From an uncultured Planctomycetaceae bacterium (lineage in GTDB: Bacteria; Planctomycetota; Phycisphaerae; SM23-33): a DNA stretch of 64,000 nt. The stretch is from NCBI GenBank assembly GCA_964427875.1, contig CAYRVX010000006.1, positions 47,222 through 111,221 of the forward strand, read 5' to 3'. The notes beneath the pieces were generated by a model, which saw nothing but the letters and a program-made list of their open reading frames with translations, had not been told where the DNA came from and did no database searches. How positions within the stretch are numbered: position 1 is the first letter of the stretch; every line of letters begins with the position of its first letter. The position numbers and the translations under genes were made by a program. Of this stretch, positions 520 to 56,826 are shown piece by piece.

Positions 520-1446
520 ATGAGCAGTCTCCCTGAGAACCCACACCCCAGGCCGGAAGACGCCGCCGCGCCGGTAAGCGACGCCTTTCTCGCCGCCGTC
601 CGGCGATTGATCGCACGCCGCGCCTGCAAGGCCTTGGGCTTTGCGAGGCTGGGCAAGGATGAGGTCGAGCAACTGCTGCCCGGCAAGATGCTTCGCACCC
701 GCCTGGCGGCGAGGCTGGCTGCGGCCGGGGCGACAACGGTGAATCGGCGGACGCTGCGGCATGCCTGTGCCGCGACCGAGCTGGTGCACACCGCCAGCCT
801 GTGCCACGACGACGTCGTCGATAACGCCGTGATCCGGCGCGCCAGGCCGGCCCTGTGGCAGACGACCGGGGCGTCGGCGGCGATCCTGATCGGCGACCTC
901 CTGCTGTGCGAGGCGCTGGGGCTGGTCACGGACGTCGAGGGCGGACGCCTCATGCCTGTGTTCGTCGCGAAGGTCAGGGAAGTGATCCGGACGGAGGTCG
1001 AGCAGGAGCTTCTGCTCCGCGGCCGGCGAGTGGACGAGGACGAGTGTATCCGCGTGGCCCGGGGCAAGACCGGGCCGCTGTTTGCCCTCGTCGCGCAGGT
1101 CTGCGGCGGCGAGGAGGCCGGGCTGTCGGAGGCGTTGGAGGAGGCGGGTTACCGGATCGGCACGGCCTACCAGCTCGCCGACGACCTGCTGGACGTGGCC
1201 GGCGACGAGGACGTGGCGGGCAAGACGCTGGGCACCGATTCAATGCGGAGGAAGTTCACGCTTCCCCTTTCCGCCGCCGGCGGGGGGCGCGTTGCGCGGC
1301 GGCACGTAGCCGAGCTGTGCGAATCGGCCCTGACGTGCCTTGACGCCTACCCCGCGGCGCGGAGAGCGTTGGCCGAATTCCTCGCGCGTGATCTCCAGCC
1401 GGTCCTCGACCGGCACCTGGACGTGTGCATGGAGCCTGCCGAATAG
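520..1446 (+). CDS. polyprenyl diphosphate synthase (trans-isoprenyl diphosphate synthase family)
   Basis: 308 aa. It carries both aspartate-rich motifs: LCHDDVVDN (first DDxxD) and QLADDLLDV (second DDxxD). Confidence 0.85.
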   Translation: MSSLPENPHPRPEDAAAPVSDAFLAAVRRLIARRACKALGFARLGKDEVEQLLPGKMLRTRLAARLAAAGATTVNRRTLRHACAATELVHTASLCHDDVVDNAVIRRARPALWQTTGASAAILIGDLLLCEALGLVTDVEGGRLMPVFVAKVREVIRTEVEQELLLRGRRVDEDECIRVARGKTGPLFALVAQVCGGEEAGLSEALEEAGYRIGTAYQLADDLLDVAGDEDVAGKTLGTDSMRRKFTLPLSAAGGGRVARRHVAELCESALTCLDAYPAARRALAEFLARDLQPVLDRHLDVCMEPAE

Positions 1447-1632
1447 CCCCGCCCGCCCGGCGGCAGCGGGGCGCGCCGGGCTGCGTGGCCGCGAGCCGAT
1501 CGATCGGCGCATCTCTCTACGATAACGACACTTGTTCTCCCTCGGCTCGCCTGGGGACGCTCCCTCCGCTCCCGCCGGCGAACCGTTGAGCAATCACCCC
1601 TGCGCGGCAAGGGCTCTCCTTCCGAAAAGGGC

Positions 1633-1659
1633 GGCCGGAACAGCACCGGACCGTTTTTT
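1633..1659 (+). terminator. candidate intrinsic terminator downstream of the polyprenyl synthase gene
   Basis: GGCCGG (1633-1638) pairs with CCGGaCC (1646-1652), with a 7-nt loop, followed by G+TTTTTT (1654-1659). Confidence 0.45.
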
Positions 1660-1686
1660 GTTAAATTTTTTACTTGTGCTTATGCT
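1658..1686 (+). promoter_or_regulatory. candidate sigma70-type promoter for the hdr/nuo/mvh operon
   Basis: TTGTTA (1658-1663), a 17-nt spacer, then TATGCT (1681-1686), inside a conspicuously AT-rich patch (1654-1700) of a GC-rich genome, about 145 nt upstream of the hdrC start. Confidence 0.35.
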
Positions 1687-1829
1687 ATGCTGAATGATGA
1701 AGTCGAACTATCCGTTTGGCATTGTTGTCGCAAGCGGCCGCCAGGTACTGTGCAGCCGTGGTCGGTCCCAGGCCACGGCGTCAGAGACGCGGCTTGGCTG
1801 AACGCAATACCCAGGCAAAGGAGCGTATA

Positions 1830-2399
1830 GTGGCTGCCACCGAGGCCAAGGATCTTAACCGGGAATTCCTGCGGCGGGTCCGCGAGCTGCCGCAGGGGGA
1901 GAAGATCGACCGGTGCATTCAATGCGGGACGTGCTCGGCGTCTTGTCCGACCAGCGGGGCGATGGACTACGGGCCGCGACAGATCATCGCTGCGCTGCGG
2001 GCGGGGATGATCGACCAGGTGCTCGGGTCCAACACCGTCTGGCTGTGCGCATCGTGTTACTCCTGCGCGGTGCGCTGCCCCGCGAAGATCCCCTTTACCG
2101 ACGTGATGTACGAGCTGAAGCGCCTCGGCACCGAGCACGGGATCTACCCCGGCAGGAGCACCAGCGCCGTGATGGCCAAGGCCTTCAGCGAAGTGGTCGA
2201 CAGCCATGGCCGAAACGCCGAACCGAAGCTGCTTCGCAAGTACTACCTGCGGACCAACCCGCTGAAGATGCTGGGGCAGATGAAGCTGGTCATGCGGATG
2301 ATGGCCCGGGGCAGGATCGACCTTTTCCCCCACACGATCAAAGGGATCGACGGTCTCCGCGAGATGATGACCGCGGCCGAGGAGAACGGAAGAAAATGA
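1830..2399 (+). CDS. hdrC: heterodisulfide reductase subunit C (2x[4Fe-4S] ferredoxin-like)
   Basis: CIQCGTCSASCP and CASCYSCAVRCP motifs. GTG start at 1830 is preceded by AAGGAG (1818-1823). The longer ORF from 1716 has an Arg/Ala-rich, non-protein-like N-terminus. Confidence 0.85.
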   Translation: MAATEAKDLNREFLRRVRELPQGEKIDRCIQCGTCSASCPTSGAMDYGPRQIIAALRAGMIDQVLGSNTVWLCASCYSCAVRCPAKIPFTDVMYELKRLGTEHGIYPGRSTSAVMAKAFSEVVDSHGRNAEPKLLRKYYLRTNPLKMLGQMKLVMRMMARGRIDLFPHTIKGIDGLREMMTAAEENGRK

Positions 2400-3289
2400 A
2401 CACGACCAACAAGACTGCCTTCCCTTATTTCCCCGGGTGTTCGGCCATGGCGGCGAACAGGGCGTACGACGTGTCGACCCGGAGCGTCGCCGGCGTCCTC
2501 GGGGTCGAGCTGGTGGAGCTGGACGACTGGAACTGCTGCGGCGCGACGGCTTACGTGGCGCTCAACGAGAAGCACGCTCTCGTCCTCTCGGCGCGAAACC
2601 TGGCCCTGGCCGAAAAGGCCGGCGACGACTTGGTGACGATCTGCAACGGCTGCTATCTGGCCCTCAGGAAGGCCAACGAGCACATCATCGAGGATGCCAA
2701 GGTGCAGGCCCAGGTCCAGGAGGCCCTGTCCGCTGGCGGCATGAGCTACGAAGGCGGCGTCCGCGTTCGGCACTTGCTCGACGTGGTGGTCAACGACCTG
2801 GGCGAGGAGGCCGTGCGCCCGCACGTCACCAACCCGCTGACCGGCCTGAAGGTGGCCCCGTATTACGGCTGCCAGATCACCCGGCCCTTCAGCGATATCG
2901 ACGACGCCGAAGACCCGCAGATGATGGACAGGCTCATCGAGTGGCTCGGCGCCGAGGCCGTGCCCTTTGGCATGAAGGCCAAATGCTGCGGGGGGTTGAT
3001 GATGACCACACAGCCGGAGATCGGTCTGGAACTCACCGGGAAGATCCTGAAGAACGCCCGGGACGGGGGCGCCGATTGTGTCATAACGACTTGTCCGCTC
3101 TGCCAGATCAACCTGGAGGCCTACCAGGCTGAAGTGGGCGAGGCGATGGGCGCCGACTGCGAGATTCCGGTCCTTTACTTCACGCAACTGATGGGCGCGG
3201 CCTTCGGGCTCGGCTCGGAGGACCTGGCCCTGAAAGATTCCCTCACGCCGGTTGAGGCGTTGTTTGCCGAGAAGGTGCAGGTTCCATGA
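2396..3289 (+). CDS. hdrB: heterodisulfide reductase subunit B (two CCG domains)
   Basis: MNTTNKTAFPYFPGCS..., with two CCG motifs (DDWNCCGATAY and KAKCCGGLMM) plus CPLCQINL. The ATG at 2396 overlaps the hdrC stop (ATGA). Confidence 0.9.
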   Translation: MNTTNKTAFPYFPGCSAMAANRAYDVSTRSVAGVLGVELVELDDWNCCGATAYVALNEKHALVLSARNLALAEKAGDDLVTICNGCYLALRKANEHIIEDAKVQAQVQEALSAGGMSYEGGVRVRHLLDVVVNDLGEEAVRPHVTNPLTGLKVAPYYGCQITRPFSDIDDAEDPQMMDRLIEWLGAEAVPFGMKAKCCGGLMMTTQPEIGLELTGKILKNARDGGADCVITTCPLCQINLEAYQAEVGEAMGADCEIPVLYFTQLMGAAFGLGSEDLALKDSLTPVEALFAEKVQVP

Positions 3290-4590
3290 ACAGCAACAAC
3301 GGAAAAGAGCGGATCGGGGTCTACATCTGCCACTGCGGGACGAACATCTCCCACACGGTGGACGTCAAGGCGGTCGCCGACTACGCCCGCACGCTCCCCG
3401 GCGTCGTTAAGGTGCGGGAGTACAAGTACATGTGCTCCGATCCGGGACAGGACCTGATCAAGAAGGACATCGAGGAGGACCGGCTCACTCGCGTGGTGGT
3501 CTCCTCGTGCTCGCCGCTGATGCACGAGGAGACTTTCCGCGACGCGTGTGAGGACGCCGGGCTGAACCGCTTCCTCTTCCAGATGTCCAACATCCGCGAG
3601 CAGTGCTCCTGGGTGCATTCGGACCGCGCAAAGGCCACCGCCAAGGCCAAGCGCCTGATCAGGGCGGCCGTCCGGCGGGTCAGTTGGCACAAGCCGATGG
3701 AGGTCCGCGAGGCACCCGTCCACCCCGACGCGCTCGTCGTCGGGGCCGGCATCGCCGGGATCGAGGCGGCCCTGAAACTCGCCGACGCCGGCAAGAAGGT
3801 CTACCTCGTCGAGAAGGAGCCCTCGATCGGCGGGCACATGGCCAAGTTCGACAAGACCTTCCCCACCCTGGACTGCGCCGCCTGCATCCTCACCCCCAAG
3901 ATGGTGCAGGTGGGCAAGCACCCCAACATCAAGCTGATGACCTACTCCGAGGTCGAGGAGGTCTCGGGGTACGTCGGCAACTTCAAGGTGAAGATCCGCC
4001 GGAAGGCGCGGTTCATCGACGAGGAGAAGTGCACCGGCTGCGGCGATTGCATCCAGAACTGCCTCGTCCGGAACAAGGCTTATCTCGAGCCGCCGGTCAT
4101 CCCGGAGGTCCAGATCGACGAAGATAAGCGCGCCCTCGTGGACCGGATCGCCGGCAAGTATGAGGGCGACGGCGCGACGCTGGTGCCCATACTTCAGGAC
4201 ATCAGCGCCGAACTGAACTGGCTGCCGCCGGAAGTGCTGGGGAGGGTCTCCGAGGTAAAGGGCATACCGCTGGAGCACGTGATCCGGCTGGCGACGTTCT
4301 ACAAGTCGTTCAGCCTCAAACCGAGGGGAAAGCACGTGATAAACGTGTGTCTCGGCACCGCCTGCCACGTGAGGGGCGCCCCGAGGATCGTGGACAGGCT
4401 CGAGCGGGAGCTGGGCATCAACGTCGGAGAGACTACCAGCGACATGAAGTTCACCCTGGAGACCGTTCGGTGCGTCGGCTGTTGCGGCCTGGCGCCGGTG
4501 GTCATGGTGGGCGACGAGTTCTACGGGAAACTGACTCCGGGCAAGGCGGCCAAGCTGATCGACACGCTCGCCGCAGCTGATAAAGGATGA
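3286..4590 (+). CDS. fusion protein: HdrA N-terminal half (N-terminal Cys domain, FAD-binding GxGxxG, first ferredoxin Cys motif) joined to a NuoE/HoxE-type thioredoxin-like [2Fe-2S] domain
   Basis: aa 1-260: IGVYICHCGTNI...YKYMCSDPGQ...NIREQCSWVH, VVGAGIAGIEAAL, FPTLDCAACILTPKM, EEKCTGCGDCIQNC (HdrA-like). aa about 280-434: LVPILQDI...VCLGTACHVRG...VRCVGCCGLAPVV (NuoE-like 4-Cys pattern). ATGA overlap with hdrB. Confidence 0.85.
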   Translation: MNSNNGKERIGVYICHCGTNISHTVDVKAVADYARTLPGVVKVREYKYMCSDPGQDLIKKDIEEDRLTRVVVSSCSPLMHEETFRDACEDAGLNRFLFQMSNIREQCSWVHSDRAKATAKAKRLIRAAVRRVSWHKPMEVREAPVHPDALVVGAGIAGIEAALKLADAGKKVYLVEKEPSIGGHMAKFDKTFPTLDCAACILTPKMVQVGKHPNIKLMTYSEVEEVSGYVGNFKVKIRRKARFIDEEKCTGCGDCIQNCLVRNKAYLEPPVIPEVQIDEDKRALVDRIAGKYEGDGATLVPILQDISAELNWLPPEVLGRVSEVKGIPLEHVIRLATFYKSFSLKPRGKHVINVCLGTACHVRGAPRIVDRLERELGINVGETTSDMKFTLETVRCVGCCGLAPVVMVGDEFYGKLTPGKAAKLIDTLAAADKG

Positions 4591-8334: not shown

Positions 8335-8605
8335 CGACGTCATCGGCAACAGCCGGGAAGGTGATATCTGGATTACACTGCAAGTTCACGTGAACGTCGT
8401 GGCCGTGGCAAGCATGAAGGAGCTTTCCGGGATCATACTCGTCAATGGAAGAGAGCCGGACGGCGACACCATCGAGAAGGCAGAGGCCGAAGGCATACCG
8501 GTCATGGTGAGCGGGCTGCCCGCGTTTGAGCTCGTCGGGCGTCTTTACGGCCTCGGGCTCCGGGGCGTGAGCGCCGAAGGCGCAGCCGGGCCGGCCGGCG
8601 CGTGA
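8231..8605 (+). CDS. DRTGG-domain protein
   Basis: MKLSRLVSELGLEV...GGHASDLLSDVIGN...GIILVNGREPDGDTIEKAEAEGIPVMV. 124 aa, the typical size of stand-alone DRTGG proteins. Confidence 0.75.
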   Translation: MKLSRLVSELGLEVRSARRSLENEVTGGHASDLLSDVIGNSREGDIWITLQVHVNVVAVASMKELSGIILVNGREPDGDTIEKAEAEGIPVMVSGLPAFELVGRLYGLGLRGVSAEGAAGPAGA

Positions 8606-33642: not shown

Positions 33643-35235
33643 ATGCGTAGAGATCAGTTCATCAGGATCACCGCGGCGTTGTTGACGATCGGGTTGGCAG
33701 TTCATGCCGCACCCGCCGACGTGAAGCTGCCCGGCGTGTTCGGCGATCACATGGTGCTCCAGCGGGACGCGGCCGTGCCTGTCTGGGGCTGGGCCGGGGC
33801 GGGAGAGAAAGTGACCGTCACCCTTGCCGGGCAATCCAAGACCGCCACGGCCGGCAAGGACGGGAAGTGGTCCGTCAGGCTCGACGCCATGAAGGCCGGC
33901 GGGCCGCACACGCTGAAAGTCCAAGGCAACCCTTCGACGGGCTCGGGGCAGGCAAGCACCATCGAACTGACGGACGTGCTCGTGGGTGAGGTGTGGCTCG
34001 GCTCGGGCCAGTCGAACATGGCGATGTCGGTTCGCGGCAGCAACAACTACGAGGCCGAACAGGCCGCCGCCAAGCTGCCCAAGGTCCGCATGATGACCGT
34101 CACCCGCACACCCGCCGAGACGCCGCAGGCCGACTGCAAGGGCACGTGGGCGGTGTGCAGCCCGGAGACGGTGGGCGGCTTCTCGGCCACCGCGTACTTC
34201 TTCGGGCGCGAGCTGCACAGGCAGCTCGGCGTGCCGGTCGGGCTGATCAACTCCTCGTGGGGCGGCACGCCGGTCCAGACTTGGACCGCCCTGGCCGATC
34301 AGCAGGCCGAGCCGAAGCTCAAGGAACTGCTGGACGGCTGGAAGCAGAGGATCGACGCGTACGATCCCCAGAAGGCCAAGGCCGCCTACGAGAAGCAGCT
34401 CGCCGCGTGGCAGGAGCGGGCGAAGAAGGCCAAGGCCGCCGGCAAGCGCCCCCCGCGCAAGCCACGCAAGGCGAGCGATCAGCGGCTCAGCCCGCACCGC
34501 CCGGGGAACCTCTACAACGGCATGATCACCCCGCTGGCGCCGTATGCCATCCGCGGGGCCATCTGGTACCAGGGCGAGAGCAACGCCGGCCGTTACAACG
34601 CCGGCCTCTACGGCATGCAGCTCGCCATGATGATCCGGAACTGGCGCCGCCTCTGGGGCCAGGGCGATTTCCCGTTCGAGTGGGTCCAACTGCCCAACTT
34701 CCGCGCCCCGCAGACCGAGCCGGCCGAGACCAGCGGCTGGGTGATCGTCCAGGAGGAGATGCTCAAGACGCTGAAGGTCCCCAACACGGGCATGGCCGTG
34801 ACCATCGACATCGGCGCGGCCAACAACATCCATCCGAAGAACAAGCAGGACGTCGGCAAGCGGCTGGCCCTCTGGGCGCTGGCCAAGACCTACGGCAAAG
34901 ATGTCGTCGCGTGCGGGCCGCTGTACAAGTCGATGGCCAGGCGGGGCGATGAGATCGTCGTGAAGTTCGATTACGTCGCCGGCGGGCTCGTGGCCAAGGG
35001 CGAGAAGCTCAAGGGCTTCGCCATCGCCGGGGCGGACAAGCAGTTCGTCTGGGCCGACGCGAAGATCGAAGGCCAGACCGTGGCCGTCTCCTGCCCCAAG
35101 GTGAAGGACCCCGCGGCGGTCCGTTACGCCTGGGCGACCAACCCGGACTGCAACCTCTACAACAAGGCCGACCTGCCGGCATCGCCGTTCCGCACCGACG
35201 ACTGGGAGCTCCTGACACCGCAGCCGAAGAAGTGA
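33643..35235 (+). CDS. sialate O-acetylesterase-family (SASA/SGNH) carbohydrate esterase, secreted
   Basis: Signal peptide. GEVWLGSGQSNM, INSSWGGTP, IRGAIWYQGESN. Confidence 0.85.
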   Translation: MRRDQFIRITAALLTIGLAVHAAPADVKLPGVFGDHMVLQRDAAVPVWGWAGAGEKVTVTLAGQSKTATAGKDGKWSVRLDAMKAGGPHTLKVQGNPSTGSGQASTIELTDVLVGEVWLGSGQSNMAMSVRGSNNYEAEQAAAKLPKVRMMTVTRTPAETPQADCKGTWAVCSPETVGGFSATAYFFGRELHRQLGVPVGLINSSWGGTPVQTWTALADQQAEPKLKELLDGWKQRIDAYDPQKAKAAYEKQLAAWQERAKKAKAAGKRPPRKPRKASDQRLSPHRPGNLYNGMITPLAPYAIRGAIWYQGESNAGRYNAGLYGMQLAMMIRNWRRLWGQGDFPFEWVQLPNFRAPQTEPAETSGWVIVQEEMLKTLKVPNTGMAVTIDIGAANNIHPKNKQDVGKRLALWALAKTYGKDVVACGPLYKSMARRGDEIVVKFDYVAGGLVAKGEKLKGFAIAGADKQFVWADAKIEGQTVAVSCPKVKDPAAVRYAWATNPDCNLYNKADLPASPFRTDDWELLTPQPKK

Positions 35236-36397: not shown

Positions 36398-37357
36398 CTA
36401 CAAGGGGACTCTCCGGAAGCTCAGCACGAGCCATTCCCTTGCCCGGGGGTCTGTGAGTTTCTTGCGCAGCCGATCGACCATCCTCTCCGGCTCGGCCAGA
36501 TACAGGGCGAGGAATGCATCGGCGGCTTGCTCGGGCGTCATTCCATGGGCTCTCCGGTCGCGGAACGACCCGAAGTAACCATTCATTTTCCTGCGCAGGA
36601 CGATGTCGCCCTCGAACAGCCACATCGAAAGCTCGTTGCGGCGTTCCTCCGGCGTCTGCGTAAGCGCCAGGTCCTCGGGGAGGACCTGAACGAACAGCGT
36701 GGAGAACGTCTTGGCGCGGATCACGGACGCGCAGACGACGTGCCCGTCCGGGCGAGGTTCCCGATGGAGGTTCGGTCCCGCGGCTGTCGCTCGCTCGAAC
36801 AATCGCTTCACGGCGGCGTCATCCAGCCCCCGGAGCGTTTCCGACCAGCGCCAGCGGGGCTCGCCTGCCTCGAAGCCAATGACTGCCGCGTTGTCGAGAC
36901 CGATCGCACCTGCCAGCGAGGCGGCCCTGCAAGCCGCCATGACCTGGCTGACCCTTGCCCTGCGGGAAAGCCTGCGCAACGTCGGCGCGTCCACTGGCGT
37001 AGAGGTGAGGACCTCTCGGACGCGATCCACCGGAAGCAGGAGCTCGGCAGCCAACTTGTTGGCCTCTGTCTCGTCATCCGATTCCGCTCGGTAGGCACCG
37101 CTTCGGGAACCGACAATGTGGCCTGTGGTGCCCAGGATTATGTGCGAGATCTCGTGGGCCAGAGTGAACCTTTGCCTGCCCCCGGAGTTGGCCGTGTTGA
37201 GCCTGATGATGGCGAAGGAACGGCAGCGTACACACCAACCGTCGCATCCCTCTAACTGCTGTTCCCTTACCGATATGCCGAGGTGTTCTGCGAGATACTC
37301 CGGCCCCCTGGGGAAGTGGGCCTCGCAAAGCGCGATCGCCTTGGCCCTTCGGATCAT
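36398..37357 (-). CDS. ImmA/IrrE-family (COG2856-like) zinc metallopeptidase fused to an about 190-aa C-terminal domain of unknown function
   Basis: FTLAHEISHIIL (HExxH) followed by ETEANKLAAELLLP. The ATG overlaps the stop of the upstream small ORF (ATGA). Confidence 0.75.
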   Translation of the reverse strand: MIRRAKAIALCEAHFPRGPEYLAEHLGISVREQQLEGCDGWCVRCRSFAIIRLNTANSGGRQRFTLAHEISHIILGTTGHIVGSRSGAYRAESDDETEANKLAAELLLPVDRVREVLTSTPVDAPTLRRLSRRARVSQVMAACRAASLAGAIGLDNAAVIGFEAGEPRWRWSETLRGLDDAAVKRLFERATAAGPNLHREPRPDGHVVCASVIRAKTFSTLFVQVLPEDLALTQTPEERRNELSMWLFEGDIVLRRKMNGYFGSFRDRRAHGMTPEQAADAFLALYLAEPERMVDRLRKKLTDPRAREWLVLSFRRVPL

Positions 37358-37635
37358 AGTGTGCTGCGTCTTAGCGGCTTGATTCCCAGGGCCTCTCGCA
37401 TGTCCTGAAGCAGGGCGAGCTTCGTTTCTCCGCTCATCGAGTTGAGGTCCCTGTCCCTGAACTCAAGTTGAAGGTCTGGGTGGAGAGCCTTAAGTGCAGC
37501 GATTTCTCTGGCAAGCTCGTCTCCCGACTGACAGAGCGTGCCGTTCTGGCGCGCACCGTTATCAGGCCACCCGGTTCCCGCGGGCGGCAGCGAATCTTCT
37601 CGCGCCGGATCTGATGTCTCTGCATGCCGAGTCAT
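37354..37635 (-). CDS. hypothetical 93-aa protein (middle gene of the GNAT-X-ImmA operon)
   Basis: MTRHAETSDPARED... Disordered N-terminal half and helical C-terminal half. ATGA overlaps at both ends. No recognisable HTH. Confidence 0.5.
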   Translation of the reverse strand: MTRHAETSDPAREDSLPPAGTGWPDNGARQNGTLCQSGDELAREIAALKALHPDLQLEFRDRDLNSMSGETKLALLQDMREALGIKPLRRSTL

Positions 37636-38231
37636 TTTATGAGTCCTTCTCGTATGAGCCAATCCTTGGCGTTATCGGCACTCAACGCCATAGAGATTGT
37701 ACCATCCTCTTTGCGGCCTGCCATCACAAATCCTCTGACCCCGTAGAATCGGAGAGTCCGATCCGTCGAGATGGCGTCAAGGGCTGTCACTCCATCGAGC
37801 CCCAACAGATAGCTATGTGCTACGGCGTAAAGGAGCAGCTTCGTGCCTGTTCCGCGATACTCAGGCTGTTGGAACAGCCAAGCCCGATTCCATGGGGCTG
37901 TGGCGATCCTTCCGATGTGGACAAGGCTCCCTCCGCCCTCTTTGCCTGTTGTCACCGTGTAGGCCATTGCCCCCTGAATTCGCCGATCGCCTGTCTCCAA
38001 CCCAACGCACCAGCCGCCCCTCACCGCATACCTGTCGGCAATGGCGCTCCACTGCCAATGCTCGTCGTCCTCTTTCTGTTGCCTGCGGCCGACCCTTCGG
38101 TTCAGTTCCGGCCACCACACGGCGTCGATCTCGGCTGCAACGGTGGGGCGGGTGAGTCTCACGAACGCCGCCTCGATCTCTTCGCCTGTGCTGCATTGGG
38201 TGAGAACTGCTTTGTCAGGCAGGCCGATCAT
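37632..38231 (-). CDS. GNAT-family N-acetyltransferase-like protein
   Basis: ...IGRIATAPWNR...YRGTGTKLLLYAVAHS (R/Q-x-x-G-x-G/A acetyl-CoA loop)...RFYGVRGF. 199 aa. Confidence 0.65.
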   Translation of the reverse strand: MIGLPDKAVLTQCSTGEEIEAAFVRLTRPTVAAEIDAVWWPELNRRVGRRQQKEDDEHWQWSAIADRYAVRGGWCVGLETGDRRIQGAMAYTVTTGKEGGGSLVHIGRIATAPWNRAWLFQQPEYRGTGTKLLLYAVAHSYLLGLDGVTALDAISTDRTLRFYGVRGFVMAGRKEDGTISMALSADNAKDWLIREGLIK

Positions 38232-38263
38232 GCAGTGCCCCAGAGGGGTTGACGTTGACGCGT

Positions 38264-38292
38264 GTTGTAAGAGGCGGGCATTGGCAAGTCAA
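38264..38292 (-). promoter_or_regulatory. candidate promoter of the GNAT-X-ImmA operon, followed by a GTCAAC tandem repeat
   Basis: On the minus strand: TTGACT (38292-38287), a 17-nt spacer, TACAAC (38269-38264). GTCAACGTCAAC (complement of 38248-38259) lies between the -10 and the ATG at 38231. Confidence 0.35.
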
Positions 38293-38441: not shown

Positions 38442-39728
38442 ATGCCAGGACGATCGAAGCACTACGACGAGCTGCGGGAGTTCTGCGAGGGCACGCCGAT
38501 CGTGGACTGCCACGATCACAGCGGCGAGTGCGGGCCGAAGTATGAAGACCCGATCCACGTCGTCCGCGGCGGGTACTTCCACAGCGACCTGTACAGCGCG
38601 CTGTCCGACGCGGAGAACGAGAAGCTCGCCGATTCGAGCCTGTCACTGGAGCAGCGCTGGCCGATCCTCGAGAAGGCCTGGAAGCGGACGTGCCACACCG
38701 GCTATGCCATGGTCACCCGGATGGTGCTCAAGAAGTGCTACGGCGTCGAGGAGCTCTCGCTGGATGCGCTGAAGTCGATGGAAGGCCGGCTGACCGACCT
38801 GACCGACGAGGAGGTCTTCGACGGCCTGCTCGAGGAGGCGAAGATCGTCGCGCGCCTGGGCGACGTCTGGCCGGACGTCCGGAAGGTGCTCGACGGCACG
38901 CTCAAGCTCGCCCCGCGCACGCGACTGGTGATCAGCCTGCCGGGCTATCACAACGTCCGCAGCCACGCCGACGTGCAGGACCGCGTTGCCCCGCTCGGGC
39001 GGACGGTGACCACGCTCGACGAGTACGCCGCCGCCTGCCGCGAGATCTTCGAGGCCCACAAGCGCTTCGGGGCCGTGGCGTTCAAGGACCAGTCGGCGTA
39101 CTCCCGGCCGATCGACTACGGCAATCCGACCCGCGCCGAGGCCGAGGCGGTGTTTAACTGGTTCATGGAGGACCCGACGCGCAGCGCCTCGTACCCCGAC
39201 GGCGTCCGGCCGCTGGACGACTGGCTGTTCCACCAGTTCCTCCGCATGGCGGCCCAGATGGATCTGCCCGTGCAGGTCCACACGGGGCACATGGCGGGCA
39301 TTCGCAACGAGATCAGCAAGACCAACGCCGTCGGCCTGACGAACGTGATCGCCCTGCACCGCGACGTTCGGTTCGACCTGTTCCACGCGAACTGGCCTTA
39401 CGGCGACGAGCTGATGTTCCTGGGCAAGAACTACCCGAACGTGGCGATCGACTTCTGCTGGACGAACATCATCGACCCGGTCTACTGCCGGCGGCTCTTC
39501 CAGCAGGCGCTCAGCGCCGTGCCGCACGGGAAGGTTCACGCCTACGGTTCGGACTTCGGCGGCCACGCCGACCGCGCCTGGGCCCACGCGTCGATCGCGC
39601 GGGACAACGTCGCCGTCGCGCTCTCGGAGATGATCGACGTGGAATACCTCGGCATGGACGAGGCGAAGGCCGTCGCGCGGGCGTGGCTGTTCGAGAACCC
39701 CAACGAGTTCTTCCGCCTGGGATTGTGA
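38442..39728 (+). CDS. amidohydrolase-superfamily (TIM-barrel metal hydrolase) protein
   Basis: IVDCHDH..., VQVHTGH..., FHANWPY..., GSDFGG: metal-ligand His/Asp pattern. The ATG at 38442 was chosen over the longer ORF. Confidence 0.7.
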   Translation: MPGRSKHYDELREFCEGTPIVDCHDHSGECGPKYEDPIHVVRGGYFHSDLYSALSDAENEKLADSSLSLEQRWPILEKAWKRTCHTGYAMVTRMVLKKCYGVEELSLDALKSMEGRLTDLTDEEVFDGLLEEAKIVARLGDVWPDVRKVLDGTLKLAPRTRLVISLPGYHNVRSHADVQDRVAPLGRTVTTLDEYAAACREIFEAHKRFGAVAFKDQSAYSRPIDYGNPTRAEAEAVFNWFMEDPTRSASYPDGVRPLDDWLFHQFLRMAAQMDLPVQVHTGHMAGIRNEISKTNAVGLTNVIALHRDVRFDLFHANWPYGDELMFLGKNYPNVAIDFCWTNIIDPVYCRRLFQQALSAVPHGKVHAYGSDFGGHADRAWAHASIARDNVAVALSEMIDVEYLGMDEAKAVARAWLFENPNEFFRLGL

Positions 39729-44437: not shown

Positions 44438-44830
44438 ATGGCTGAGAAACTTGCGGCACCGGGCGGTCCGAGGGCGATCCCCGAGGGCGCGATCAAGCCC
44501 TGGCCGTCGTCGGCCGCCTGCTGCATTCACCACAACTGCATCCCGGTCCTCGTGGACATCGACTGGGATACGACGAACATCGACGCCGACCGGATCGCCG
44601 CGGCCGTCACGCACCGCACGAAGGCGATCGTGGCGGTTCACCTGCACGGCCACGCCGACGACGCCGCGGGCCTTCGCGACAGGATCGTCTGGGCCCTGAA
44701 GGCCGAGGGCGCCGGCGTCGGCACCTGGCAGGGCTGGCCCGTGCCGCAGATGACCGCCTTCCAGGCGAAGAACGCCTACGGCAGGGGCTGTCCCTGGTCG
44801 TGCTGGGCCGGGCGGAAGAGATCGACTCAA
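44438..44830 (+). pseudogene. remnant of a DegT/DnrJ/EryC1-type PLP aminotransferase (three short conserved blocks only)
   Basis: LAAPGGPRAIPEG..KPWP (N-terminal block). IPVLVDIDWDTTNIDADRIAAAVTHRTKAIVAVHLHGHADD (mid block). ALKAEGAGVGTWQGWPV...GRGCPWSC (C-terminal block). These are joined in about 130 aa instead of about 400 aa, and the PLP-lysine region is missing. Confidence 0.6.
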
Positions 44831-44835
44831 ACAAG

Positions 44836-44867
44836 GCTCCTGCGGCCCGGCCAGGGGAGCTTTTTTT
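44836..44867 (+). terminator. intrinsic terminator-like hairpin + T7
   Basis: GCTCC (44836-44840) pairs with GGAGC (44856-44860), with inner GC pairs, followed by TTTTTTT (44861-44867). Confidence 0.5.
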
Positions 44868-44985
44868 GGCGTGGTTCAGATGCGGGTAACATTCCGCCGC
44901 CGCTTCGCCCGCAGCCCGCGGCGCCGCCCGGGGGAGGCCCAACTCGTGCTTCGCAGCGAAGTACTGCTTCGCAGAGTAGCAAGGG

Positions 44986-45023
44986 CCGGAAGGACCTGCC
45001 TGCCGGCAGGCAGGTCCTTTCGG
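44986..45023. repeat. 38-bp near-perfect palindrome sharing its core with the 40678-40696 hairpin
   Basis: CCGGAAGGACCTGCCTGCC|GGCAGGCAGGTCCTTTCGG (18 of 19 positions complementary). The core CCTGCCTGCCG(G)CAGGCAGG also occurs at 40678-40696. Confidence 0.7.
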
Positions 45024-45065
45024 CCCGCCGTGTGCGAGGACAAATCCGGGGAGCTTTCCTCTTCG

Positions 45066-45252
45066 CCCCGTACGGGGCGGTACGTGGGTAGCCCAGGGCG
45101 ACCGGAGGGAGCCCTGGGTACGCGTCACCCTTTGTGCGGAGCCTCGTATGGGGCGACCGTGAGGTACGGTCACCCCTGCCGGGGTTCCGCGAAATACACG
45201 CCCTGCAAACCCAGGGCTTGCGGCAAACAGCGCCGCGGCGCCCTGGGCTACC
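45066..45252. repeat. cluster of palindromic junk repeats bounded by inverted GGTAGCCCAGGGCG copies
   Basis: GGTAGCCCAGGGCG (45087-45100) and its reverse complement (45239-45252). Internal hairpins include CGCCCCG/CGGGGCG (45064-45079), TA(G)CCCAGGG/CCCTGGGTA (45089-45120) and GCGACCGT/ACGGTCAC (45153-45173). Confidence 0.6.
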
Positions 45253-45441
45253 AACGTCCGCTCCTCCGGAGCTAACAGATTACAGAAACAATCGTTACGG
45301 ACCGCCGGGAAACATTCTCACACACGGCCCGCCGGGCCTCGTCTGTAGACTCGTGGGTTCCCAAGACTCGCAGGCGCTGTTACGTGGGAACTATCGTTTC
45401 TGAACCAGGCCGCTTTTTTTGAAAAATCCCTGCAATAATCA

Positions 45442-53379: not shown

Positions 53380-54978
53380 TCACTCGCCGCGTACGGACCA
53401 GTCCGGGTCGGTGCGGAACGGCACGGCGGGCAGGCCTTCCTTGTTGTAGAAGTTGCAGTGATCGGTGTTGGTGGTGAAGGCGTACCGCGCGGCGACGGGC
53501 TTGCTGACCTTGTCGCTGGAGACGACGATCGCCTTGCCGTCGATCCTCGCGTCGGCCCAGTACCACTTGCCGTCGGCGCCCTTGATCGAGAAGCCCTTCA
53601 GCGTGCCCCCGGCGACTTCCTGCGCGGGGGCCAGCCCCTCCTTCTTTCCCACCATCAGCCCACTGCCGGCGTGGTCGAAAGAGAGGACCATCCTGCCGCC
53701 GTCGACCTTGGAGCCGCTGTAGATCGGGCCGCTGTGGACGAGGTCCTTCCTGCCGTAGTCCTTGGCCAGCGCCCAAAGGGCCAGGCGATCGCCGACATCC
53801 TGCTTGTTCTTCGGGTGGATGTTCCGCCCGTCGCCTATATCGGTCAGCACGGCCATGCCGGTGTTGGGGATGGACAGGCAGGCGGCCTGGGCCTCGCGGA
53901 CGCGCGCCCAGCCGTCGCCGCCCTCGGGCTTGCTGTTGGGCTGCATGAAACTGGCGAGCTGGGCGAAGTAGAACGGAAAGTCGCCTTGACCCCAGAGCTT
54001 CCGCCAGCCGCCGATCAGGGCCCTCTTCTTCTCGTAGTAGCTCTTGCCTTCGCCGCCGTTGGACTCGCCCTGGTACCACAGCGCACCGCGCATGGCGAAC
54101 GGAATGAGCCCGTGGATCATGCCGTTGTAGAGCCCCGTCGGCGAGCCGGAGGAGTTCAGCGAGTGCTTGGGCATGCTCGGGGCCGGCGGGATCTCGCCGT
54201 TGTCGGCCAGGGCTTGTTTGGCCTTCGGCAGCCAGGCCTCCACGCGAGAGATCGCCTCGCCGACACCCTTGCGGTACCGCGCGGGGGCCTGATCGATCTG
54301 CTTGACGAACGACTGGAGCGACCCGACGGCCTGAAAGCCGCAGGGCGGCGTCCACGGCTCGATGCGCGTGCCGCCCCAGGAGGAGTGGATCAGCCCGACG
54401 GGCACGCCAAGCTCCTTGTGGATTCGCCGGCCGAAGAAGTACGCCACGGCCGAGAAGCCCCGCACGCTGGATGGGCTGCAGACCTGCCATCGCCCGGAGA
54501 CATCGTCGCGCGGCTGGCCGGCGGGCTTCTTGGCGACGGTGAACATGCGGACGGCGGGGTACTTCGCCTCCTTGCAGAACTTCCCGGACTCCAGGCAGCC
54601 GCCGACGCTCATCTCCATGTTGGACTGCCCCGACCCGAGCCAGACCTCGCCCACCAGAATGCTCTTGAGCTTCCGGGTCTTGCCGCTTCCGTCGGCGATG
54701 GTCATCTCGGCGGGCGTGTCGCTGGCCTCCATCGCGTCGAGCTTTGTCATCCACTTGCCGTCCGCGCCGGCCGTGGCGACCTTCTCCTGCCCCGCAAACT
54801 TCACGGTGACCTTCTCGCCCGCTTCCGCCCAGCCCCAGACGGGCACGGACACCCCGCGCTGAAGGACCATGTTGTCGCTGAACACACTGGGCAGCCTCGT
54901 CGCCGCCGGCGCCGCCGAGACGGCGACGGCCGTCAACGCCGCCGCGACCACGAACAACCTCGCCTTACTTGTTCTCAT
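53380..54978 (-). CDS. sialate O-acetylesterase-family (SASA/SGNH) esterase, secreted; paralog of 33643-35235
   Basis: Signal peptide. GEVWLGSGQSNM, IHSSWGGTR, MRGALWYQGESN. Confidence 0.85.
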   Translation of the reverse strand: MRTSKARLFVVAAALTAVAVSAAPAATRLPSVFSDNMVLQRGVSVPVWGWAEAGEKVTVKFAGQEKVATAGADGKWMTKLDAMEASDTPAEMTIADGSGKTRKLKSILVGEVWLGSGQSNMEMSVGGCLESGKFCKEAKYPAVRMFTVAKKPAGQPRDDVSGRWQVCSPSSVRGFSAVAYFFGRRIHKELGVPVGLIHSSWGGTRIEPWTPPCGFQAVGSLQSFVKQIDQAPARYRKGVGEAISRVEAWLPKAKQALADNGEIPPAPSMPKHSLNSSGSPTGLYNGMIHGLIPFAMRGALWYQGESNGGEGKSYYEKKRALIGGWRKLWGQGDFPFYFAQLASFMQPNSKPEGGDGWARVREAQAACLSIPNTGMAVLTDIGDGRNIHPKNKQDVGDRLALWALAKDYGRKDLVHSGPIYSGSKVDGGRMVLSFDHAGSGLMVGKKEGLAPAQEVAGGTLKGFSIKGADGKWYWADARIDGKAIVVSSDKVSKPVAARYAFTTNTDHCNFYNKEGLPAVPFRTDPDWSVRGE

Positions 54979-55087
54979 CCGTTCGTCTTTCCTATGCAAG
55001 TTGCCCACGACTGCTCCCGGCCGCACACGGCCGGGGAACGCCCATTGTGCCCTCAGCCGCCGGCGCATGCAACCCCCCGCTATTTCG

Positions 55088-55111
55088 CTATTTCGGGGAC
55101 AGATACCATAA
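55088..55111. repeat. left RAYT-flanking repeat
   Basis: CTATTTCGGGGACAGATACCATAA lies 1 nt beyond the RAYT stop. It is the inverted partner (22/24) of 55832-55858. Confidence 0.7.
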
Positions 55112-55112
55112 C

Positions 55113-55793
55113 TCACCTCTTCGCTCTTTTCCTTTGCTCCTTCTTCGGCTTCGGGCCGCGCTTGCGGGGGCGGAGGACGCGGCCGAGTAGCGATTCGAGG
55201 TGCTCAACGAATCCGGTCGAGCCGCACGGACGCCCCGTGCGCGTCTGCCGGCGGATCGCCTCGACGGCCGCCTCGTCCTCGTTCCGCAGGTACGCCGACC
55301 AGTCCGGCACCGGCCAGGGCATCTCGACCTGCGACAGCAGCGCGTCGCGGCGAAGCCCGCAGTGCGCCGCCGCGCTGGACCACGGCCAGTCCTCCGCACG
55401 TGCCACCAGGCCCGCTCGCAGCGGGTTGCGCTCGACGTATCGCACGGCCGACCACAGGTGGGCATCGTCCAGGATGCACGAAAAGAAGCGGCCCTGCCAC
55501 AGGTGGCCCGTCTCGTGCGTCTTGTCGTTGAACCACGATGCGTACGCCTGGTGGGTGTCGCGGAACGTTCGGCCGAGCGACTCGGCCTCATCGGGCACGG
55601 CCACGAAGTGCACGTGGTTGCCCATCAGGCAGTACGCCCAGATTCGCAGCCCGTACCGCCCGGCGTACCTGCCCAGCAGGAACAGGTACCGCCGGCGATC
55701 CTCATCGGCGAGAAAGACATCCGCCCGCCGGTTGCCGCGCTGCGTGACATGGTGCGGACAGCCCGGCACGACCACCCGTGCGATGCGAGGCAT
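55113..55793 (-). CDS. REP-associated tyrosine transposase (RAYT; IS200/IS605 Y1-transposase-like, COG1943)
   Basis: PGCPHHVTQRGNRR, AYCLMGNHVHFV (HUH motif), WQGRFFS, RYVERNPLRAGLV (catalytic Tyr region). Confidence 0.85.
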   Translation of the reverse strand: MPRIARVVVPGCPHHVTQRGNRRADVFLADEDRRRYLFLLGRYAGRYGLRIWAYCLMGNHVHFVAVPDEAESLGRTFRDTHQAYASWFNDKTHETGHLWQGRFFSCILDDAHLWSAVRYVERNPLRAGLVARAEDWPWSSAAAHCGLRRDALLSQVEMPWPVPDWSAYLRNEDEAAVEAIRRQTRTGRPCGSTGFVEHLESLLGRVLRPRKRGPKPKKEQRKRAKR

Positions 55794-55831
55794 GTCGCGA
55801 GCCTACGCCGTGCCGGCGTCCGGTGCAAGGG

Positions 55832-55858
55832 CTATTTTGGTATCTGTCCCCAAAATAG
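55832..55858. repeat. right RAYT-flanking repeat (itself a hairpin)
   Basis: CTATTTTGGTATCTGTCCCCAAAATAG. A 9-bp stem (CTATTTTGG/CCAAAATAG). It contains TGGTATCTGTCCCC, the exact reverse complement of 55095-55108. Confidence 0.7.
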
Positions 55859-55903
55859 GCTCGTAAGATCGCCGGGCCGGTACACCGGAACCGGGAGGTT
55901 CTA

Positions 55904-56826
55904 GGCTCTGTCTGAAAAGTCGATATTTAGCCGATATGTCGAATGGTAGCGACCCGTGTTGACAGATGAAAGGAGTCATCATGATTCGACATCGGCTGAC
56001 GGACGAACAATGGGAACTGATCGCGGACCTGTTTGCCCCACCCAAGCGGATGGGGCGACCGCCACGGGATCGACGAAAGATCATGGATGGCATTTTGTGG
56101 ATTCTGCGAACCGGTTCTCCCTGGCGAGACTTGCCGGAGGTTTTGGGCCCATGGCAGACGGCGTGGGACTTGTTCAATCGCTGGAATCGGGACGGAACGC
56201 TGGAGAGGATCCTCGAACGTCTGCGCCTGAAACAGCAACTCGATCCAGAGCTGTGGTGTATTGACGGAACGATTGTCCGCGCGGCGCGATGTGCGTCGGG
56301 CGGCGGGAAAAAAACGATCCGAACGAACCGGGCGACCATGCGCTCGGGCGTTCGCGCGGCGGTATAAGCACTAAAATTCACATTTTGTGCGATGCGCAAG
56401 GCCATCCGTTAGACGTGGTGGTGACGGCTGGGCAGGTCCATGAATCCACCGCCTTGGACACGTTGCTGGTCCAGGCGGACCGGGACTTGCTCGACGTCCA
56501 GGGCGATCCGGTTCCCTGGCCGGTCGCGTTGGCCGGCGACAAGGGCTATCGCGCCGATTGGATTGATGACTATCTGTTGGACTTGGAGATTCGTCCGGTG
56601 ATTCCCTCGAAGGAGAACGAGGATCGGGAGGGACGGCCGGTGGCGTTCGACCGAGAGCAATATCGTCGCCGAAACATTGTGGAACGATTGATCGGCTGGC
56701 TGAAGGAAAGCCGGCGCGTGTTCTCTCGCTTTGAGAAAACCGCCCTGAACTTCGTCGGGATGATAAAAATGGCGTTCATCGACCGATACCTGAGACTGGC
56801 AACAAAATGACTTTTCAGACAGAGCC
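55904..56826 (+). mobile_element. intact IS5-family insertion sequence (IS427-like group), 923 bp
   Basis: Terminal inverted repeats GGCTCTGTCTGAAAAGTC (55904-55921) and GACTTTTCAGACAGAGCC (56809-56826). TA flanks both ends (55902-55903 and 56827-56828), reconstituting a CTAG target. Confidence 0.85.
55981..56810 (+). CDS. IS5-family DDE transposase, produced from two frames by a -1 frameshift
   Basis: ORFA: MIRHRLTDEQWELI...PWRDLP (HTH). ORFB: ALGRSRGGISTKIH...DKGY...RNIVERLIGWLKESRRVFSRFEK. The frames are offset by -1 and overlap at the A7 slippery run 56308-56314 (GGG AAA AAA A). Confidence 0.85.

Follow-up and report, generated by a model that had tools for sequence, protein, structure and literature searches.

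Within a 64,000-nt stretch of DNA from an uncultured Planctomycetaceae bacterium (contig CAYRVX010000006.1), here called the window, three minus-strand genes, designated A, B and C, form a real, conserved, self-contained and translationally coupled cassette. The trio encodes a predicted GNAT-fold acetyltransferase of very divergent sequence, a small protein of no known family and a zinc metallopeptidase of the IrrE/CapP (M78) type, and is probably a conflict module. We tentatively read it as a protease-gated, toxin-antitoxin (TA)-like or abortive-infection module in which C would sense a cue, cleave B and release A, an interpretation that in our judgement has close to an even chance of being correct. 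The main interest of the trio is the large, unannotated family of GNAT-peptidase operons that it exposed. Members of the A family regularly head operons with M78 sensor peptidases, and these constitute an uncharacterised class of candidate TA/defence systems. The genes, in the order of the operon, are as follows.

37632..38231, minus strand: gene A, first gene of the operon, putative divergent GNAT-fold acetyltransferase (open reading frame, AlphaFold2 model, Foldseek, family profile)
37354..37635, minus strand: gene B, 93 aa, of no known family (no library match; alignments; 67 clusters)
36398..37357, minus strand: gene C, 319 aa, predicted IrrE/CapP-type M78 zinc metallopeptidase (Pfam, PADLOC, AlphaFold2, Foldseek)

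The open reading frames (ORFs) of A (38231-37632, 199 aa), B (37635-37354) and C (37357-36398) meet at ATGA overlaps at both the A/B and the B/C junction, the stop of one gene overlapping the start of the next. These coordinates agree exactly with an earlier reading of the same DNA (the original prediction), which had proposed a tripartite TA/defence module and suggested a search for co-occurrence of the three families. Such co-occurrence was found in every locus recovered. The genes lie in the order A-B-C, on one strand, at every full-length C homologue and every B homologue located, and at every close A homologue whose contig extends far enough to include the neighbouring genes. Homologous loci that were compared carry L-numbers (L001 and so on); A-B-C loci comprise the window, L001-L003, L006-L014, L090, L214-L220, two loci without DNA and about 13-18 metagenome loci. 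They fall mostly in Planctomycetota. L008-L014 represent seven GTDB genomes assigned to Planctomycetaceae, Planctomycetia, Phycisphaerales, Planctomycetota and, in one case, Armatimonadaceae, and a B homologue from Pyrinomonadaceae (Acidobacteriota) is on record. The overlaps recur: the spacing is -4 between A and B in 10 of 18 loci, and -4 or -8 between B and C in 12 of 13.

The trio has a G+C content (GC) of 0.619 (A, 0.59; B, 0.60; C, 0.64) versus 0.672 in the rest of the window, ranking 21st lowest among 622 equal-sized windows; the lowest GC of a 400-bp window is 0.565. The GC dip described earlier is real but milder than the 52-60% against 65-70% then claimed. Trio GC was below flank GC in 11 of the 12 distinct loci measured, as in L012 (0.44 versus 0.59) and L013 (0.54 versus 0.68).

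Several copies of the cassette are decaying. In L214 and L216, A is inactivated by a single C>T nonsense change (Gln to stop, position 8540) and the L215 copy is intact; these are near-identical assemblies, with 30 mismatches in 11.5 kb between L214/L216 and L215. C is frameshifted in L219 and L220, and L011 has both a truncated A and a frameshifted C. B is intact in every locus with a decayed A or C (L011, L214, L216, L219 and L220). Small as the sample is, this pattern is what an arrangement of toxin, antitoxin and trigger predicts. The population to which L214-L216 belong is a widely sampled planctomycete, P0215, listed in 108 index blocks.

Protein domains and conserved residues

C is the most readily classified of the three proteins. 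Pfam Peptidase_M78 (PF06114) matches residues 23-144 (5.7e-16; 58.9 bits versus a cutoff of 22), and the best PADLOC match is capP, over residues 13-174 (1.1e-27), with weaker matches to PD-Lambda-2_B (1.5e-5) and RmrA (1.9e-12 and weaker). By Foldseek against the Protein Data Bank (PDB), the AlphaFold2 model of C (predicted local distance difference test, pLDDT, 87) matched CapP (7t5t, E 2.8e-8 over 288 columns), PprI/IrrE (8sln, 3dte, 3dti) and the Mycobacterium tuberculosis regulator 6cyy. As modelled, C is an IrrE/CapP-type protein made up of a peptidase domain, a helical linker resembling a helix-turn-helix (HTH) and a GAF-like domain. Since the CapP and PprI matches are nearly full-length, most of C beyond the peptidase is predicted to be linker and GAF-like domain; of the roughly 190 aa that had been described as without a family, only about residues 236-314 are not accounted for in this way. 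The HEISH motif and downstream Glu motif noted earlier correspond to H68/E69/H72 and E105. The following features of C were mapped.

37142..37156, minus strand: H68-E69-I-S-H72, zinc-binding/catalytic HExxH of C (invariant columns; identical to the RQRFTLAHEISH stretch of IrrE)
37043-37045, minus strand: E105 of C, third zinc ligand, within AAELLLP (invariant column)
36665..36892, minus strand: GAF-like alpha/beta domain of C, about residues 156-231 (secondary structure of the model; CapP and PprI matches)
36416..36652, minus strand: helical C-terminal extension of C, about residues 236-314 (five predicted helices; subfamily-specific)

The C-terminal helices (~85 residues) are conserved across the C family, for example at F248, D251 and F282. 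Also invariant are G40-W41-C42, on a beta strand, and R61, which lies 7 residues ahead of the first zinc His, the position of CapP R90. In CapP, R90 contributes to single-stranded DNA binding (PMC13228613).

B matched no family in Pfam, NCBIfam, PADLOC or PHROGs, and PDB sequence searches gave chance-level matches only. At 90% identity the B family falls into 67 clusters, with lengths of 87-99 aa except for five outliers of 58-133 aa; no Pfam domain is recorded for any cluster, and named members are labelled 'hypothetical'. No HTH or other DNA-binding domain was found in B in these four libraries, the PDB or the 67 clusters, in agreement with the original description of a middle protein lacking an HTH. 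The N-terminal half of the protein varies, except for a G-G/T-x-x-(L/W)-P-D patch. In the C-terminal ~50 residues the family conserves HP..L.FR..DL..M...TK..LL.D...LGI.PL, with T71, K72 and L75 nearly invariant in the same alignment that holds the following dipeptide invariant.

37456..37461, minus strand: F59-R60 of B, invariant in 13 diverse sequences, candidate scissile bond

CapP cleaves CapH between F82 and R83 (PMC13228613). By analogy, F59-R60 may be the site at which C cleaves B.

A matched nothing in Pfam, NCBIfam, PADLOC or PHROGs at E<1, and PDB sequence searches returned chance-level matches only. Its fold was approached through an AlphaFold2 model built from six sequences (pLDDT 77; predicted template modelling score, pTM, 0.79). 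Foldseek found 170 PDB matches to this model at E<=1e-3; the best 50 of the 170 were all GNATs (probability 1.00), and the top-ranked were TA toxins, namely 7byy ('bacterial toxin'), TacT3 (7ak9) and AtaT (6gtr), with E values of 6e-7 to 3e-6 and TM scores of 0.5-0.66. A search of a viral structure library returned only generic phage GNATs. The model thus indicates a complete but very divergent GNAT fold. Foldseek alignments span 160-195 columns of the 199-aa model against GNATs of 160-180 aa, and the N-terminal part of A is therefore predicted to be the N-terminal arm of the GNAT fold. The ~70-aa N-terminal extension previously attributed to A is accordingly no extra domain; the only insert is residues 36-58, which are of low confidence in the model and bear family-invariant Trp residues. 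The GNAT loop recognised earlier, YRGTGTKLL, is present and was mapped together with two further conserved features.

37833..37859, minus strand: YRGTGTKLL, A residues 125-133, putative loop for acetyl-CoA pyrophosphate binding (GNAT motif A, by alignment with solved GNATs)
37743..37745, minus strand: Y163 of A, nearly invariant (a profile alignment places the AtaT catalytic Y144 on this residue)
37887..37898, minus strand: APWN, A residues 112-115, signature motif of the family (A112, P113 and N115 invariant or nearly so)

In the motif A stretch R126-G-T-G129-T-K, G129 is family-invariant and the sixth position is K, where the consensus (R/Q-x-x-G-x-G/A) has G/A. In the family profile, 'FY..GF' of A aligns with motif B of solved GNATs. 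We take the catalytic tyrosine to be Y144 in AtaT and Y140 in TacT.

The A family and its operon types

A word-indexed homology search with A recovered only five relatives, making the family look tiny. An exhaustive family-profile search instead yielded 1,482 clusters (50% identity) at E<=1e-3 and 731 at E<=1e-10; nearly all of the best 150 of the 1,482 clusters are about 200 aa long. Invariant or near-invariant positions are W39, W59, W61, A112-P113-x-N115, G129, S140, G147-R148 and Y163. Three Pfam GNAT models gave weak matches to 15, 11 and 6 of 80 members scanned, no PADLOC model matched the members scanned, and NCBI labels on plasmid copies read 'GNAT family N-acetyltransferase' or 'hypothetical protein'. 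Judged by sequence comparison, A represents a large GNAT family with no specific Pfam, NCBIfam or PADLOC model. Members are spread over Planctomycetota, Cyanobacteria (on plasmids), Proteobacteria and other phyla, and some reside on conjugative plasmids.

Operon context was surveyed with a degenerate DNA pattern for A.AP.NR-x8-Y[RK]G.G, which gave 120 metagenome loci; with three loci fetched earlier the set numbered 123, and 112 of the 123 examined hold an A-family gene. Clustering of the genes downstream of the GNAT defined four operon types, three of which (I, II and III) include an M78 peptidase.

Type I: GNAT, ~164-aa Xre-HTH protein, ~303-aa M78 peptidase and often a 121-aa gene; about 50 loci, both genes seen in 28
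Type II: GNAT, B, C (the type of the window); about 18 loci
Type III: GNAT, M78 protein without HTH, Beta_protein; about 13 loci
Type IV: GNAT, ~177-aa unknown protein; about 15 loci

The commonest operon headed by the family is type I, with the order RHH-GNAT-Xre-peptidase, where RHH denotes ribbon-helix-helix. A ~70-aa RHH gene overlaps the GNAT start in 37 of 39 type I loci, the classical position of the TacA/AtaR antitoxin. The Xre protein matches HTH_19/HTH_3 and capH (4e-4) and the peptidase matches capP (5e-15). Type I appears to be undescribed as a system. An annotated example is found on the Bradyrhizobium plasmid pBb1S5b (L213 3786-6038), with genes for a CopG-RHH protein, a GNAT, an HTH regulator and an ImmA/IrrE peptidase. 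Type I operons, for example those of L112, L131 and L162 among L091-L210, have four or five genes, the 121-aa protein often encoded last being rich in Cys, His and Trp.

Type III operons connect the A family to PD-lambda-2, an experimentally validated anti-phage system composed of a HigB-like A protein, an Xre-peptidase fusion B and a P4 beta-like (PF14350) C (Vassallo et al. 2022, PMC9519451). The second gene of type III matches PD-Lambda-2_B (9.6e-55) as a B homologue lacking the HTH, and 11 of the ~13 loci also carry a PD-Lambda-2_C homologue (5e-41, PF14350). In this branch the GNAT stands where PD-lambda-2 has its HigB-like first gene, as observed in L098, L103, L113, L122, L129, L139, L140, L142, L173 and L183. 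The type I Xre protein and the ~177-aa protein of type IV have an N-terminal motif in common (hhalign probability 91%). Type IV cassettes were observed on large Nostoc plasmids (L211 and L212, including pCC7120alpha 44749-45315), the GNAT being preceded by a small gene and followed by one for a ~175-aa unknown protein. All of the three are hypothetical in the annotation of PCC 7120, which has another, unrelated GNAT gene immediately downstream.

Some individual loci have other neighbours. On pBb1S5b (Bradyrhizobium barranii, L213), genes for a ThiF-family adenylyltransferase, an MPN/JAB protein and a metal-binding protein (903-3114) adjoin the RHH-GNAT-HTH-ImmA cassette and look like a ubiquitin-like conjugation or defence cluster, and a DUF4238 gene lies downstream of the cassette. 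In L110 (about 885-3671) and L170, an A-family GNAT is followed by a 929-aa protein resembling a type I restriction R subunit (HsdR), a hint that some members of the family sit among defence genes. Upstream of a distant A homologue (P0006), the ORF at L004 1-246 opens with what looks like a fragment of a polyketide-synthase ketosynthase, and its end resembles the C-terminus of a type I RHH protein (…RQALKLYQAIDERLSRGEKLFAEDIDKKEKAELVVL); it is probably an assembly chimera formed at a common 'VIRQAL' stretch.

Proposed mechanism, rival explanations and known systems

Under the protease-gated reading, A would be the effector, a GNAT that stops growth by acetylating a cellular target; the analogy with TacT and AtaT makes charged tRNA the most obvious choice. 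B would be a small, non-DNA-binding protein that restrains A, and C an IrrE/CapP-type sensor protease responding to a stress or infection cue, which, if IrrE and CapP are a guide, may be single-stranded DNA produced by DNA damage or infection. Activated C would cut B, probably at the invariant Phe59-Arg60, and so free A. We infer the toxicity of A, the binding of A by B, the cleavage of B by C and the nature of the trigger. In evolutionary terms the trio could be a pared-down relative of the larger A-family operon set, commonest in its RHH-GNAT-Xre-HTH-M78 form; compared with type I, it lacks the RHH gene, and B sits in the position of the HTH protein.

A more ambitious proposal is that C cleaves a non-DNA-binding inhibitor, B, and thereby unleashes a GNAT toxin post-translationally, with the A family serving as a common effector of protease-gated systems that include PD-lambda-2 relatives. 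Taken as a whole we consider this proposal somewhat unlikely, yet its implications are considerable. To our knowledge, IrrE/CapP-type sensor proteases have so far been described only as transcriptional de-repressors. The trio of the window, with three genes and no DNA-binding protein, offers a clean test of whether such a protease can control an effector through a protein inhibitor in place of a repressor. If the proposal is true, direct wiring of protease to effector would provide a fast, transcription-independent response to DNA damage or infection, and the A family would be the common effector of large and diverse protease-gated systems (about 1,500 clusters at 50% identity). The family also ties to PD-lambda-2, the GNAT replacing the HigB-like first gene in one branch.

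A number of observations weigh against a protease-gated toxin module. A fails the curated GNAT thresholds of Pfam and NCBIfam and is only 12-18% identical to known GNAT toxins, and its Foldseek scores for TA toxins barely exceed those for ordinary GNATs; with so narrow a margin, the match to TA toxins is a lead and not proof of kinship. The trio has no RHH/DUF1778 antitoxin, nor was an RHH-like upstream ORF found in 10 type II loci scanned. The N-terminal motif of type I and IV second-gene products, a putative GNAT-binding motif, was sought in B and rejected, none being detected. Comparison of B with the type I Xre partner by hhalign gave a single local match, 'vrF..R..dL..L' on the Xre C-terminal tail (19 columns, P = 0.007, hhalign probability 5%), which makes the notion of B as a truncated Xre partner, keeping at most its C-terminal segment, a weak sequence lead. 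A CapP-like cysteine switch in C was likewise rejected, as the equivalent loop between H72 and E105 has no Cys; regulation of C may therefore differ from that of CapP. The switch is present in many but not all CapPs (PMC13228613).

The genomic setting cuts both ways. GC below that of the flanks, neighbours that vary by genome and fast divergence resemble the behaviour of a selfish or conflict module; absence from defence islands and phages, and a site common to three related genomes, speak against one. Each copy of the trio sits alone among housekeeping genes (GlmS, alkaline phosphatase, MTHFR, GidA, IleRS, NUDIX and a Y-family polymerase), neither an integrase nor a tRNA or defence gene adjoins it, and the A family is absent from phage records and viral contigs, the lone viral-contig pattern match not being the gene. 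A defence-island, prophage or mobile-element setting was thus rejected. In the window, L001 and L003 the trio stands beside the same amidohydrolase, that is, at the same chromosomal site in three related genomes, and in L003 its GC has been ameliorated. Between the window and L001, identity is 60% for A, 56% for B and 49% for C, versus 80% for the adjacent amidohydrolase; the trio was therefore inherited at this site within the clade while evolving much faster than its neighbour. The original prediction had regarded vertical conservation with normal GC in close relatives as a sign against it, and this is what L001 and L003 in part display, with the accelerated divergence of the trio on the other side. 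Of the tripartite TA/defence-like proposal itself there remain the strict linkage of the genes, a GNAT fold whose nearest structures are TA toxins, an IrrE/CapP-type C, and a B with an invariant F-R that stays intact in decayed loci; the trio does not lie in defence islands.

These features leave room for A as an ordinary protective or metabolic acetyltransferase, acting in antibiotic or xenobiotic detoxification or in protein modification after DNA damage, with B and C as a post-translational stress switch and no toxin involved. GNAT-Xre and GNAT-RHH pairs have been judged likelier to be resistance modules (PMC2701414), A resembles TA toxins at the level of fold only, and housekeeping neighbours and synteny in three related genomes would suit such an enzyme. 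We nevertheless consider this account improbable, as GNAT-RHH pairs (TacT/AtaT) have since been shown to be toxins, the module is patchy, low in GC, fast-diverging and repeatedly pseudogenised, and its sister operons have an RHH gene in the classical antitoxin position or validated defence genes. Roles might instead be reversed, C (or C with B) inhibiting growth and A neutralising or modulating it, for example by acetylating C or B. In PD-lambda-2, toxicity came from the peptidase-containing B protein overexpressed by itself and was relieved by the product of the first gene (PMC9519451). Which protein of the trio plays which part is therefore uncertain, and the roles could be reversed. A-family members hold the first position of PD-lambda-2 before PD-Lambda-2_B/_C-like genes in about 11-13 loci. 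Against reversal, L219 and L220 keep intact A and B with a frameshifted C, and elsewhere A is nonsense-mutated with C intact. A and C can thus each be lost, so that these losses do not mark C in particular as the toxin, and the nearest structural relatives of C, IrrE and CapP, are specific regulators and not toxins. We judge reversed roles quite improbable. Very little probability attaches to a purely regulatory, IrrE/DdrO-like DNA-damage switch in which C would cleave B to control transcription of other genes and A would be a passenger: in its modelled structure C is close to IrrE and CapP, and Planctomycetota are not known to have a characterised equivalent, but none of the libraries showed an HTH or any other DNA-binding domain in B, and no trio locus recovered is without A, which in most of them is translationally coupled to B.

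As the original prediction had suspected, the trio matches no named system. Three-component systems of Xre, COG2856 (ImmA/IrrE) peptidase and toxin were predicted in 2009 by Makarova, Wolf and Koonin, with RelE and PIN as toxins and an Xre-HTH partner often fused to the peptidase; that study also mentioned GNAT-Xre pairs, but without a link to the COG2856 peptidase (PMC2701414). The trio may fit this predicted kind in general terms, having three components that include a COG2856/M78 zinc peptidase, a toxin-like gene and a small partner in one operon, and a logic in which the protease would remove the antitoxin or repressor. Unlike those systems, its toxin candidate is a GNAT, B lacks an HTH and an Xre component is absent; what is new is the GNAT effector family, the HTH-less partner and a peptidase subfamily with an extra C-terminal domain.

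CapH/CapP regulate CBASS and other immune operons, and IrrE(PprI)/DdrO is the corresponding pair from Deinococcus. C resembles both proteases in its peptidase, helical-linker and GAF-like architecture and its RQRFTLAHE..H active-site block, and the invariant F-R of B recalls the CapH cleavage site. CapH and DdrO, however, are HTH repressors with a transcriptional output, and the trio belongs to neither pair because it has no HTH substrate; B and C are also encoded after the proposed effector, to which they are coupled, and do not make up a regulatory pair of their own, and C differs from CapP in its missing cysteine switch and its extra ~85-aa helical tail. TacAT, AtaRT, KacAT and GmvAT share with A the GNAT fold, the acetyl-CoA loop and the aligned catalytic Tyr, and in the sister operons of the A family, too, a ~70-aa RHH gene precedes the GNAT and overlaps its start. 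The low identity of A to these toxins and its family-specific Trp-rich insert set it apart, as does the toxin-first order of the trio with its protease gene; lacking a DUF1778/RHH antitoxin, the trio is not a TacAT/AtaRT system.

Nor is the trio a member of PD-lambda-2 or RosmerTA. With PD-lambda-2, for which we know of no described mechanism, it has in common that three genes form the operon and that the second or last of them encodes an M78 peptidase protein, and another A-family branch lies directly upstream of clear PD-Lambda-2_B and _C homologues; the window trio itself has no PD-Lambda-2_A or _C match, the M78 domain alone being common to both. RosmerTA (RmrT/RmrA) shares the M78 peptidase domain, with a weak PADLOC match to RmrA over the peptidase core only, whereas RosmerTA has two genes and its RmrA, about 370-400 aa long, fuses an HTH to the peptidase. 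No description of a GNAT plus M78 peptidase system was found in the literature searched.

Upstream region and surroundings of the trio

Plus-strand genes of the URO-D family and of Amidohydro_2 flank the trio, as described earlier, and the URO-D side also holds a PhoH gene and a SASA esterase gene. Upstream of A lies a 210-bp intergenic region, followed by the divergent amidohydrolase, the true start of which is probably M42, at 38442. Two elements of the intergenic region had been pointed out previously, and both are literally present.

38264..38292, minus strand: promoter-like TTGACT-17-TACAAC, 32 nt upstream of the ATG of A (sequence)
38248..38259, minus strand: tandem hexamer GTCAACGTCAAC, between the -10 element and the start codon (sequence)

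A consensus promoter scan did not call the promoter-like site because its -10 element lacks the final T, at position 6. At the equivalent place upstream of the L001 homologue, TTGACA-17-TACAAG is retained within DNA that has otherwise diverged. The hexamer repeat GTCAACGTCAAC is not conserved there, and its significance is therefore doubtful. An Rfam scan of the window found no RNA family, and no tRNA was found in the window.

A second low-GC patch, at 55113-56810, has the lowest GC of the window (0.576). It includes a minus-strand 226-aa ORF (55113-55793) resembling an IS200/REP-associated tyrosine transposase and, on the plus strand, an IS5-like transposase broken into overlapping ORFs (55966-56367 and 56289-56810), both recognised by eye from the translations; a 181-aa ORF lies beyond. 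Two paralogous SASA-type (sialate O-acetylesterase-like) genes, at 33643-35235 and 53380-55116, are 20 kb apart on opposite strands, and the antisense frames of both give long spurious ORFs, as is typical for such a high-GC genome.

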